Origin: a virus | Lineage: Duplodnaviria; Heunggongvirae; Uroviricota; Caudoviricetes | Length of the DNA: 51,538 bases | Reading direction: 5' to 3' (one strand) | IMG/VR virus record: IMGVR_UViG_3300026078_000021 | Coordinates: 1 to 51,538 of that record | Part shown: piece after piece, positions 30,693 through 33,660 of the stretch | Numbering within the stretch: position 1 is the stretch's first letter | How the letters are laid out: each line of letters opens with the position of its first letter | The notes under the pieces: generated by a model | Database searches by the model: none | Seen by the model: the letters and a program-made list of their open reading frames with translations, nothing else | What the model was told of the DNA's origin: nothing | Translations under genes and position numbers: made by a program

Positions 30693-31001
30693 CTAGGACA
30701 TGTTGATTTCGGTGAAGCACTGGATGTTCGTGACGGCGGCGTTCAGGCTCGCGGCCAGAGCGACACACTCATTGGCGACGAAGTCGCGCACGAGTTCACG
30801 CGCCAGGCGGATACCGGACTCCGGCCAGAAAATGGTCACCACCGCGCCCGATGCGCTCGCGGTGGCGGCGGTGTTGGACACCGCCGGGAAGATGATGCCG
30901 TTGAACGCATTGACGATCGTGGTGGCGTCGCCGTTGGTGTTGCCCGGCGCGCTCAGGGTCACGTACGTGCGGTACGCGAGAGTGCCCGCTGGTGCGGTCA
31001 C
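30693..31001 (-). CDS. Hypothetical head-module protein
   Basis: GTG at 31001 with RBS GGAGG. Confidence 0.65.
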   Translation of the reverse strand: MTAPAGTLAYRTYVTLSAPGNTNGDATTIVNAFNGIIFPAVSNTAATASASGAVVTIFWPESGIRLARELVRDFVANECVALAASLNAAVTNIQCFTEINMS

Positions 31002-31049
31002 ACAACCTCCGTTGTAAGGCGATGGCATTCTGCAAGATGCCACCGCAGG

Positions 31050-31067
31050 GCGGTATTATGCAGGCAT
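31050..31067 (+). promoter_or_regulatory. Leaderless promoter/operator of the LAGLIDADG gene
   Basis: TATTAT (31054-31059) 6 nt before the ATG; near-identical to capsid exon 2 sequence at 31639-31621. Confidence 0.55.
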
Positions 31068-31581
31068 GGATGAACTGTCGCTCGCCTACTACGCCGGTCT
31101 TCTCGATGGCGAGGGGCACATCGGCATCCACCGCACGGTCCGCAAGAGGGATCAGGGCGTTCAGTACGGCGGCCGGATGTCGCTGCGCATGTCGGAGAGG
31201 GAAGTGATCGAACAGTTCGCGGAAGATTTCGGTCTCTCTGCCGGGCCCGCGAACTGCGGCACCAGACATGCAAAGCGGGAGGTGTTCGGGGTGTCGGCCG
31301 AAGGCCGACGTTCGAGAGTCCTGCTAGAACAACTCCTGCCCTATCTGCGGGTGAAGCGCGCGCAGGCCGAGCTTGTCATCCGGCTTGAAGCCGAGAAGCG
31401 CGAGCCCGGACTGCGCAGCAGAAAGATCCCCACGAGTCGGCTAATGCCTGGTGGGGTCGTCGTCCGTAGCACCGCCTCAGCCATCGGGCCGGAGACCATT
31501 GCCCGATGGGAGGCGATGTACGTGGAGGTGCGCAAGTTGAACAGGCCGGAGCACGAGATCGCGCCCCGGCCTGCCGGTTAG
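31066..31581 (+). CDS. Free-standing single-motif LAGLIDADG homing endonuclease, antisense to the late operon
   Basis: LAYYAGLLDGEGHIGI motif; LLPYLRVKRAQAELV; stop overlaps the capsid exon 2 stop (TTAG 31578-31581). Confidence 0.9.
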   Translation: MDELSLAYYAGLLDGEGHIGIHRTVRKRDQGVQYGGRMSLRMSEREVIEQFAEDFGLSAGPANCGTRHAKREVFGVSAEGRRSRVLLEQLLPYLRVKRAQAELVIRLEAEKREPGLRSRKIPTSRLMPGGVVVRSTASAIGPETIARWEAMYVEVRKLNRPEHEIAPRPAG

Positions 31582-33660
31582 GACCAGGTACCGGTCGAGC
31601 CGGAGCGGTCGGATTTCTGAATGCCCTGCATAATGCCGCAGTACTGCATTTCTGTTACCCACACCCACGACGGATGTGCGGCCACGTCATTTCTGCGCGG
31701 CTCTTACGCTCTCACGCAAGATCAGACCATATCTTGGACTTCTGGAGTCCCACCGTACATGGTCGTTGAACCTTCCCGTCGGGTTTCCCCAGGCGGGCTC
31801 GGCTGCTGATTGCCCCTGCTGCTTGCTTTTCAGGCGTTCACGCTCGGGCTTTCGCCCCACGTTGTAGCGCAAGCAGGTGAATCGGGTGTTCCAGCAATTC
31901 TCGGTGTTTTCATTCGCAGGTCGCCCTGCGACGGCCCCCTACTGAGGCGCGTTTGCAACCAAAGCCCCGTACATAAACATGCTGTAACGGAACGATGCGT
32001 CGATCACCGGCCACGAAATGGACAGGTAGTCCTGGACCGTGACGAACTCCCACACGTTGCTCACGTTCGACCAGGCGAACGGGAGCGTGTAGCTCATCGC
32101 CATGAGCGTGCCCTGCGGCAGCCACGGGTGCACCAACAGCTTGATGACGCTGCGGGTGATCGGGTTCTGGAACTCCGATACGGCTGCTCCGGCGCGGACA
32201 CCGGCCACGTCCGGCTGCTCGACGAACAGACGGTAAGCGGTGGTCGTGCCGCTCTGGACGATGTCGTTGCTCAGGCGCATCAGGTCGCCGCCCTCGCCGA
32301 TCAGCTCGGCCGGGTCGGCGCGGTAGGCCCCGGGGCCGTCCCACAGGCCCTGAAGCATCGTGTTGACATTCGTGATGTGCAGCACGTCGCCGACGGACTG
32401 GTTGATGTAGCCACCGTCCCAGCCGGCCGGGTAGACCTGGCCGTTGCCCTGGGAGTGCCCGGCGATGACCGGGATCAGGCCCTCCTGGGCGTTCGCCGAG
32501 CCCGTGCCGGTGTCGGCGGTCGGAGCCGTCGCGCCGGTGGTGTTCAGGGCGCCCTGGAGCGTGAAGTTCAGGCCGCCGACGCCGGACTGCATCAGGTGGT
32601 AGGTGCCGGCCGATGCGCCTGTGGTGACGTACAGGTTGTACTGGAGGGCGCCGGTGACCGGGGCGATCGTGACGTCCACGACCTGCCCGGAGGACCAGGC
32701 CACCGAAGCGCCGGTGGAGGCCGCCGTCTCACCCCAGTAGTTCGTGGCGGTCACCTCGACGAAAACGTTCGTCGTGATGCCGGTCAACGCGGACTCGCCG
32801 GAGTTGGCGGCGCGGGCCACGAGCGTCGGGGTGCCCGGGGTGGACAGGTTCGTGGAGGTGGCCGCGAGGTGCGCGACTTCCTCGTTGGACATGAACTCCT
32901 GGAGGAGGATCAGGTTTGCCAGGGCACTGATGTCCTCGAACCCCTGGCCGGCGAACTGCGCGAGCCAGGACAGCGACTCGCTCAGGCCCCAGAAGCGGTA
33001 GGGGACGTTGAGGTCGATGGAGTCCTGCACGCCGGAGCCTGGCAGGTTCAGCGGCCAGTTCTGGAGCGAGGAGGACCCGGTGACCAGCTCAGGGATGCCG
33101 AGCTGCACGAACTTGCCACCCGAGGTGCCGGTCTGAGAACCGCTCACGCCCGTGATGACCTTCGTACGGCGGGACGTACCCTGACCCGGGACACGCGGCA
33201 GCTTGTTGCGGATCGGGCTGTAGATCGGGTAGATCAAGCGGCTCGGTGCAACGAGATCGAACGGGACAAGACCCGAAGACAAAGGACTTGTCAACGTCAC
33301 GTTACGACCGATGAAATCGCTGATCTGGCCCGAGAGCTGACCCAGCATCTGCTGCATGCCATACGCCTGCGGCGTGGAGTTCAGGAACGACCCGAACTGT
33401 CCGACGAAGTCGGCCGACAGGCCCTTGACCACGGCCTGCGGGTCCGCGAGGGACTTACGCACCGCGTGCGTCAGGGCCATCTCCGCGCGCATGGAGCGCT
33501 TGAAAACCTCGTCATCGTCCTGCAAGGCGGCGTTGCCGCCGGGCCGGGCGAACCCGACCCCTTTGACCATGCTCGGCATCTTGCCGGCGAGCATGGCGTT
33601 CGGCTCGTCGTACTGGGCGGCCTCAGTCGCCAGCGACGAACCGTCGAGAACAACGGTCAC
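31578..33660 (-). CDS. Major capsid protein, split by a group I intron: join(33660..31945, 31646..31578), 594 aa spliced
   Basis: GLVPFDL..SPIRNKLPRVPGQG..EEVAHL HK97-fold motifs; splicing gives ..GALVANAP|QYCGIMQGIQKSDRSGSTGTWS; unspliced mRNA stops at 31939. Confidence 0.88.
31647..31944 (-). ncRNA. ORF-less group I intron (298 nt)
   Basis: P AAUUGCUGGAA (31899-89), Q AAUCAGCAGCC (31811-01), R GUUCAACGACCA (31771-60), S AAGAUAUGGUCU (31735-24); P3 CACCG/CGGUG; P7 GACCA/UGGUC; GNRA-capped P2, P5, P6 stems; 5' exon ends in U and intron ends in G. Confidence 0.92.

Follow-up and report, generated by a model that had tools for sequence, protein, structure and literature searches.

Collaborative homing is the favoured model for the assembly of mobile group I introns from a ribozyme and a free-standing nuclease. 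It is defined by the psbA intron of cyanophage S-PM2 together with the endonuclease F-CphI (Zeng et al. 2009) and by the T3-like phages (PMC6083498; PMC3984707); few cases are known, and the literature searched contained none with a LAGLIDADG enzyme. The major capsid gene of mycobacteriophage LittleE, an actinophage with a genome of approximately 110 kb, is interrupted by a group I-like intron (Pope et al. 2013, PMC3706429); splicing of the capsid message was shown by reverse transcription PCR and N-terminal protein sequencing, and phage BAKA carries a relative of this intron that lacks an open reading frame (ORF) (PMC3706429). Two further studies describe the terminase intron of phage ICP1 with its neighbouring T5orf172 gene alongside the T3/T7-like phages (PMC10448857, in which Barth et al. 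2023 refer to Bonocora and Shub 2009) and trans homing in the mobE/I-TevIII system of phage T4 (Wilson and Edgell 2009, PMC2790892). Here, a stretch of 51,538 nt (the window) from the IMG/VR virus record IMGVR_UViG_3300026078_000021 was analysed, in which a 298-nt insertion that is, judged by its predicted fold, a group I intron splits a probable major capsid gene, and a free-standing LAGLIDADG gene lies antisense directly behind that gene. The reading that is favoured here, with moderate confidence, is that intron and endonuclease gene form a co-mobile cassette driven by this enzyme cutting cassette-free capsid alleles. The window covers the opening 51.5 kb of the record, which is 115,538 bp long, carries direct terminal repeats, and has a G+C content of 67.6%, and the source is a high-GC soil phage with a genome of approximately 115.5 kb.

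The insertion (31944-31647, minus strand) splits the capsid gene 22 codons before its end. Exon 1 (31945..33660, minus strand) comprises 572 codons counted from a predicted start codon, and exon 2 (31578..31646, minus strand) comprises 22 codons (66 coding nt) and the stop codon TAA at 31580-31578. The unspliced ORF (33660..31939, minus strand, 573 aa) ends at a TAG (31941-31939), and an unspliced capsid message would accordingly terminate one codon inside the intron; production of the full-length protein would require removal of the intron from the late mRNA. Joining 31945 to 31646 results in a 595-aa protein that ends in the 22 residues QYCGIMQGIQKSDRSGSTGTWS, exactly the C-terminus of three uninterrupted homologues (P0004, P0005, and P0008). 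Among the 120 best capsid homologues, all continue past NAP-x except the window product and one truncated protein, and nearly all run from there into tails of the type YCG...QKSDRSGSTGTWS. The insertion site lies within this highly conserved NAP-x-YCG motif, and the DNA of exon 2 matches that of two related loci (L002 and L003). Since the intron and exon 2 both start with CAGTA, the splice position has an ambiguity of 5 nt; a U at position -1 and a terminal G are both satisfied only by the combination 31945|31944 and 31647|31646.

The element (31647..31944, minus strand), which is absent from the uninterrupted homologues, was compared with the Rfam group I model RF00028. The match covers 31954..31703 (minus strand) over the full length of the model with a score of 45.4 bits (E = 2.7e-10 in a local scan and 1e-11 for the genome). 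The gathering score of RF00028 is 50 bits, just above this value, and a default Rfam scan therefore misses the intron: the whole window gave no match at the gathering threshold and the intron was seen only in a permissive scan, which counts against the assignment. The score is 45.6 bits for the orthologous intron in L018, and it rises to 59.4 bits for a paralogous intron in L018 and to 53 bits for one in L016. An nhmmer profile built from the three orthologous introns returned 143 matches in the fetched loci. A 29-member alignment (A2) folds into P2, P3, P4, P5 (an extended arm with a GNRA cap), P6, P8, P9, P9.1, and P9.2; of 75 predicted pairs, 55 show compensatory changes. The P7 pseudoknot was added by hand, giving 80 pairs; with P7 included, 97.5% of the cells are paired compared with 32-42% when the partners are slid, and 58 out of 80 pairs covary with changes on both sides (three out of five within P7 itself).

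In the window intron the predicted elements (all minus strand) are P1 (31948-31944 with 31938-31934, 5 bp), P2 (31931-31914), P3 (CACCG/CGGUG, 31906-31902 with 31755-31751), the P4-P6 arm with the extended P5 (31896-31770), P7 (GACCA/UGGUC, 31764-31760 with 31729-31725), P8 (31750-31736), P9, P9.1, and P9.2 (31720-31661), and the terminal G (31647); P7.1 and P7.2 are absent. The P1 wobble pairs U31945 (-1) with G31937, and the wobble G occupies the same column of the guide sequence in all three terminal introns (window, L018, and L016). The intron contains stop codons in all three frames and is the only copy in the genome. Based on the alignment and the predicted fold, the insertion is classified as a group I intron. 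An earlier note on this DNA had described the TAG that ends the capsid ORF just inside the element, the in-frame 22-aa C-terminus restored by excision, an intron without an ORF, and a group I core with P3, P7, U(-1), and the terminal G in these places; all of these descriptions hold, and the core has gained covariation support from the 29-member alignment.

The capsid intron is presumably spliced, in which case the ligated exons (capsid sense) would read CTGCGGCATTATGCAGGG. A rhizosphere metatranscriptome run (X5) contains this phage, and a 172-nt contig from the run matches 32093-31940 on the exon 1 side perfectly, followed by 18 unplaced letters that differ from the intron sequence expected there. 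The divergence at 31940 fits ligated exons because the 5 nt of CAGTA are shared, which moves the expected point of divergence to exactly this position. However, the contig is only a hint of splicing: its 18-nt tail could equally well originate from an intron-less variant or from library DNA, and a second contig from X5 spans the 3' splice site in unspliced form. Placement of reads on the RNA run gave no splice joints, and the coverage was patchy throughout, so that uncovered parts of the intron are uninformative. Another run (X6) contained only the conserved core of another intron. The 49-aa tail of exon 1 was searched in a protein database for the product of the contig and returned five fragments of relatives, none of them identical.

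The gene behind the capsid gene (31066..31581, plus strand) encodes a protein of 171 aa with the single motif YYAGLLDGEGHIG and the conserved residues E16 and K97. It is located outside the intron, beyond the 66-nt coding part of exon 2, and its stop codon TAG (31579-31581) overlaps the capsid TAA (31580-31578), which agrees with the single-motif LAGLIDADG gene, tail-to-tail with the capsid gene and 66 bp from the intron, that had been noticed before. The Pfam profile LAGLIDADG_1 matches the protein with 17.4 bits (E = 0.0087), below the cutoff of 23.1, and PHROGs labels the family as 'HNH endonuclease'. A phmmer search of PDB sequences identified I-MsoI (E = 3.6e-8) and I-CvuI (E = 2.7e-7), with matching chains spanning 3.6e-8 to 3.7e-7. 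The AlphaFold2 model has a predicted local distance difference test score (pLDDT) of 88.3 and a predicted template modelling score of 0.81 and recovers the alpha-beta-beta-alpha-beta-beta-alpha fold. The top 47 Foldseek matches of this model are all chains of the I-CreI family (including I-CvuI, I-MsoI, E-DreI, and I-Vdi141I), and the leading ones (I-CreI, I-CvuI, and I-MsoI) display a probability of 1.00 and template modelling scores of 0.64-0.75. Within 15 relatives, D14, G17, P92, and K97 are invariant and E16, the acid at the catalytic position at the end of the motif, is nearly so. Judged by these similarities and by the modelled fold, the protein is a single-motif I-CreI-type LAGLIDADG homing endonuclease, and nuclease activity would be expected of it.

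Homodimeric endonucleases of the I-CreI type cut DNA site-specifically and leave 4-nt 3' overhangs. A two-copy model of the window protein scored 0.74 (best control 0.00), with at least 86% contact agreement between runs and a partner pLDDT of at least 83; the score mark used was reached by 21 out of 30 proteins solved as one-chain pairs and by none of 23 single chains. The predicted interface consists of the LAGLIDADG helix (residues 3-16) and residues 42-50 and 93-96. The model supports, and does not show, binding as a homodimer through the motif helix, and the score may stem from likeness to, or memory of, solved I-CreI-type dimers. The G+C content at third codon positions is 77% in the endonuclease gene and 87-90% in the flanking genes.

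The association between the two elements was surveyed in related capsid genes. The endonuclease family is rare (eight matches among 5.8 billion proteins) and the only close homologues of the window endonuclease are P0122 (loci L016 and L017) and P0123 (loci L018, L019, L065, and L087), each 45% identical to the window protein and 80% identical to each other. Both genes are antisense, lie tail-to-tail behind the capsid gene, and adjoin the orthologous last intron (82% column identity). Overall, the terminal intron was present in all three loci that bear the endonuclease gene, and either element was found in none of approximately 39 other capsid loci, of which approximately 21 contain introns of the same family elsewhere in the gene (around residues 139, 145-151, 220, 247-260, 535-549, and 560). 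The closest relatives, L100 (90% capsid identity), L002 (80%), and L003 (74%), carry neither the intron nor the endonuclease gene. Every carrier is sister to non-carriers with strong support in the capsid tree, and monophyly of the carriers is rejected (approximately unbiased test, P = 5e-8). The three endonuclease ORFs are intact and keep the motif acid and K97. At the level of sequence, this distribution supports the interpretation of intron and endonuclease gene as a co-mobile cassette.

The borders of the cassette were defined by comparison with L002. Similarity ends at TAACC (31576) and restarts at TGTGTGACC (31004), indicating that the endonuclease cassette (31005..31575) replaces a spacer of approximately 55 nt between the capsid gene and the next gene in relatives without the homing endonuclease gene (HEG). 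The next gene directly follows the capsid gene in L002, L003, and L100, and the replaced spacer in these three loci carries a perfect palindromic, terminator-like hairpin. A hairpin formed by a 15-nt inverted repeat (31542..31573) is located in the window just past the stop codon of the capsid gene, where it falls within the 3' end of the endonuclease ORF, and equivalent hairpins are present in L016 and L018; it does not fit the consensus of the terminator scan, which found nothing between 30900 and 32000. As a side observation, the same spacer in an intron-less sister of L016 (L403:3893-4300, minus strand) holds an unrelated antisense ORF of 135 aa without a Pfam match, and the spacer downstream of the capsid gene may be prone to receive antisense genes in general.

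The endonuclease ATG is immediately preceded by an inverted near-copy (31050..31064, plus strand, 14 out of 15 bases) of exon-2 bases 31625-31639. It includes a -10-like TATTAT (31054-31059) located 6 nt before the ATG and is possibly a leaderless promoter or an operator. An equally good inverted repeat arose in 25 out of 1000 Markov resamples of the region, and the copy was not seen in L016 or L018. A second inverted repeat (31039-31052 with 31922-31935, 12 out of 14) was judged to be at chance level and was rejected.

Under the favoured reading, the endonuclease would introduce a double-strand break into cassette-free capsid alleles during a mixed infection, at the intron insertion site or within approximately 100 bp of it, and repair by recombination from the cassette-bearing genome would copy both the intron and the endonuclease gene (collaborative or trans homing). 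Both the position of the cut and the protection of the phage's own genome by the intron are presumed here. Several findings weigh against this reading. Only three loci carry the cassette, and they represent two clearly independent lineages, the endonucleases of L016 and L018 being 80% identical. The endonucleases of the two lineages are 45% identical, whereas the capsids are approximately 65-70% identical, and since the endonucleases have diverged more than the capsids a recent transfer among the sampled lineages is unsupported. Identity profiles against L100 and L002 stay flat over the whole gene and show no signature of co-conversion, and no consensus promoter for the endonuclease was found in a scan of 30900-32000. 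In view of the greater divergence of the endonucleases and the lack of a visible co-conversion tract, the pattern is also compatible with an old association followed by repeated loss.

Three wider searches were conducted. The pattern GTAACA-N9-TACTGCGG gave chance matches in viral and metagenome contigs, and none of the 236 loci among the matches listed contained the intron, the capsid gene, or the endonuclease gene. The intron-core motif was found at 62 loci in bacterial genomes of many phyla, none with the terminal intron or the endonuclease; 10 of the 62 contain introns of the family and two contain this capsid family (an uncultured Actinomycetota metagenome-assembled genome). A blastn search of the locus against cultured phages returned only short matches to the intron core (Xanthomonas phages, Vibrio phage ICP1, and Bacillus phages), which are uninformative on this locus.

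A special case of the co-mobile cassette is strict collaborative homing, in which the recognition site spans the insertion site and the intron both protects and travels. The layout fits the definition provided by S-PM2 and F-CphI (PMC6083498; PMC3984707), the insertion lies in the highly conserved NAP-x-YCG motif, and the intron at the terminal site was never seen without the endonuclease. In addition, the window intron splits a GTAC-centred pseudo-palindrome: the reconstructed junction GCGCCT|CAGTACTGCGGC is symmetric at 7 out of 11 positions about GT|AC, with the centre 4 nt from the insertion site. However, equally symmetric sites occur at 5 out of 1763 positions of the capsid mRNA, half of the CAR-TAY-TG codon choices for Gln-Tyr-Cys yield an 8-bp palindromic core, and the junctions of L016 and L018, which contain Phe in place of Gln, show no symmetry. 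The pseudo-palindrome was therefore downgraded as evidence for a target, being mostly a by-product of codon choice that is absent in L016 and L018. Furthermore, HEG-less relatives carry in their spacer a palindromic hairpin that is an equally good candidate target for a homodimer. Given the weak palindrome, the asymmetric junctions of L016 and L018, and the alternative target in the spacer, strict collaborative homing is regarded as a serious possibility that is nevertheless not the expected outcome. The fuller proposal of LAGLIDADG collaborative homing in a virion structural gene, with an enzyme that would cut NAP-x-YCG in intron-less alleles and an intron that would act as an immunity element, is viewed as doubtful. 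The capsid family concerned is rich in group I introns, with as many as five or six in a single gene among relatives, and if the proposal were true, the inverted exon-2 copy before the endonuclease gene could serve as an operator for autoregulation by the enzyme.

Alternatively, the enzyme might target the spacer or the neighbouring gene, as in intronless homing, with the intron 66 nt away being co-converted without offering protection. The usual target of a free-standing endonuclease is a conserved gene next to it (PMC6083498), the cassette replaced the palindromic terminator-like hairpin of L002, L003, and L100, the unrelated antisense ORF in the spacer of L403 suggests that the spot attracts insertions, and introns of this family have spread to many other capsid sites without this endonuclease. 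On the other hand, decoupled genomes would be expected from such a mechanism and none were present among approximately 42 loci, so that the exclusive pairing is left unexplained and this alternative is considered rather unlikely. A relic linkage, in which the two genes are adjacent by descent or the endonuclease gene replaced an intronic one (HEG turnover), in which the system is inactive here, and in which the patchy distribution reflects repeated recombinational loss, agrees with the greater divergence of the endonucleases relative to the capsids, with the lack of a visible co-conversion tract, and with the endonuclease ORFs in other introns of the family, including an antisense LAGLIDADG ORF in L057; HEG turnover has been proposed as the origin of such layouts (Barth et al. 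2023, PMC10448857). This explanation has to account for three intact endonuclease ORFs out of three with the motif acid and K97 retained, and requires that several sister lineages each underwent two exact deletions; it is regarded as quite improbable. Finally, a role of the LAGLIDADG protein as a trans-acting maturase for the capsid intron or introns without nuclease activity is very improbable, since many multi-intron capsid genes of the family lack the endonuclease, the residues at the catalytic positions are conserved, and the closest likeness is to the DNA-cleaving homodimers I-CreI, I-MsoI, and I-CvuI, even though LAGLIDADG proteins can be maturases (e.g., for the Thermotoga 23S intron, PMC3984707) and the endonuclease accompanies capsid genes with one to six introns.

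The identity of the interrupted gene as the major capsid gene is probable, based on homologues and gene order. The capsid ORF matches phrog_13692 (E = 1.6e-67) and belongs to a family of 1034 homologues, which are metagenomic proteins. Arthrobacter phage Mufasa8 and Alicyclobacillus phage MMB025 encode distant homologues with the annotation major capsid or head protein, and both phages share the portal-protease-capsid gene order of the window, where a portal fusion gene and an ORF of 864 aa precede the 573-codon ORF on the minus strand. Among the named Atlas clusters, 'Major capsid protein' and SU10_MCP come closest. A test of the fold failed, as the AlphaFold2 model of the capsid protein was poor (pLDDT 55); the capsid profile gave only chance matches and no relative among the PDB sequences, and Pfam and NCBIfam contained no match. 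The gene is called 'probable' because the evidence for capsid identity is indirect. The assignment as major capsid gene in the earlier note is thus probable rather than proven.

The capsid genes of the two related carriers contain multiple interruptions, five in L018 (5560-9000, minus strand) and six in L016 (5590-9930, minus strand), with micro-exons of 12 and 14 codons (SISWPVIDASFR and SMFMYGAMVVNAPF). The profile of the intron family matches all five interruptions in L018 and four out of six in L016. To our knowledge, so many group I introns within one phage gene have not been described. The terminal introns are located at 31944/31647 in the window, 5939/5629 in L018, and 5976/5656 in L016, and their predicted splice phases differ (CCT|CAG, CCCT|TC, and CCCTT|C). 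The distance from GTAACA to TACTGCGG is constant at 9 nt and the number of intron nucleotides after GTAACA is 6, 7, or 8. By this alignment, the terminal intron looks as if it has slid across one variable codon while the wobble column was kept. The capsid homologue P0074 ends in ...SISWPVIDATFR, the position of the fourth intron of L016 and L018, and because of this coincidence it is probably another intron-bearing capsid that was cut short by the gene caller.

Some members of the intron family carry ORFs, so that ORF-less, ORF-containing, and endonuclease-adjacent states exist within one family. An antisense LAGLIDADG_3/Hom_end ORF is located within a family intron in L057 (7355-8140, plus strand), arranged as in LittleE, and the ORFs among L062:2158-3108, L049:1367-2224, and L016:7633-8463 encode, on the sense strand, DUF559 (a Vsr-like nuclease) and a helix-turn-helix domain. 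More distant relatives of the endonuclease (23-31% identity) adjoin weak matches to RF00028 in L091 (2630-3246) and L099 (4254-5564), and the relative in L091 is antisense to its neighbours and borders the RF00028 match. Matches to the P4-P6 core with 72-82% identity are present in Xanthomonas jumbo phages (OQ790161.1, 253467-253569), Vibrio phage ICP1 (HQ641347.1, 40367-40470), and a Bacillus phage (MZ501265.1, 37258-37378), mostly in regions that are unannotated or annotated as hypothetical protein, and presumably represent group I introns of these phages.

With the window locus and its two relatives, collaborative homing would gain a LAGLIDADG case, located in the late gene that a phage expresses most highly. 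The system is tractable, consisting of one small protein and one 298-nt RNA with natural cassette-free alleles at 74-90% capsid identity, and introns of the LittleE type, with an antisense LAGLIDADG gene inside, offer a natural 'after' state for comparison. The 143 profile matches and up to six interruptions per capsid gene imply that gene callers systematically fragment such metagenomic phage capsids. Enzymes of the I-CreI type provide the scaffold of engineered meganucleases and a new natural specificity is therefore of practical interest.

Among the systems described at the outset, S-PM2 with F-CphI shares with the locus the proposed logic of an intron that blocks self-cleavage and an enzyme that mobilises both. 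The catalytic motif of F-CphI is of the Endo VII type, and cutting by F-CphI at the insertion site was demonstrated, whereas the window encodes a candidate homodimeric LAGLIDADG enzyme from an antisense gene whose stop codon overlaps the one in exon 2, the interrupted gene is a structural gene, and cleavage is proposed. In ICP1 and the T3/T7-like phages an endonuclease gene likewise lies beside an exon and the arrangement has been read as collaborative homing or HEG turnover, but the endonuclease families (the GIY-YIG-like T5orf172 and others), the host gene, and the phage lineage differ. In T4, mobE is also a free-standing endonuclease gene that mobilises a neighbouring intron unable to move alone; in contrast to the window system, the mobE enzyme is of the HNH type and a defunct endonuclease ORF persists in the T4 intron.

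At the level of the enzyme, I-CreI, I-MsoI, and I-CvuI share with the window protein the single motif, the core, the predicted motif-helix dimer, and the conserved acid and Lys. They differ in being encoded in the sense direction inside algal rRNA introns, whereas the window enzyme is free-standing in a phage, contains an additional beta-hairpin and C-terminal helix (residues ~120-160), and is 16-20% identical to this group. The proteins gp24 of Streptomyces phage Anedea and gp7 of Streptomyces phage Faust belong to the same protein clade (approximately 31% identity, DGEGHIGI motif) and are likewise free-standing in large actinophage genomes, but they are co-directional with their neighbours and located beside ThyX, with no intron annotated nearby (based on annotations only).

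LittleE is a precedent with regard to the host gene. It carries a LAGLIDADG gene on the opposite strand (gp14, approximately 177 aa, I-CreI-like), and its late capsid mRNA needs splicing. The gp14 gene is housed by an intron of 820 bp close to the 5' end of the capsid gene, whereas the window contains a 298-nt ORF-less intron at the 3' end and an endonuclease gene beyond exon 2. LittleE gp14 was not among the tblastn matches of the window endonuclease at E <= 1e-3, and relatedness between the two capsid families was not detectable. The earlier note had argued for collaborative homing in a LAGLIDADG-based version. The argument for collaborative homing has gained from the strict co-occurrence of intron and endonuclease and the scattered distribution of carriers; the novelty was overstated in view of the LittleE capsid intron with its antisense I-CreI-like gene and of the free-standing LAGLIDADG genes in Streptomyces phages. 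What is new in the window locus is the combination: a LAGLIDADG gene outside the intron, antisense, overlapping the stop codon of exon 2, and recurring together with one intron site.

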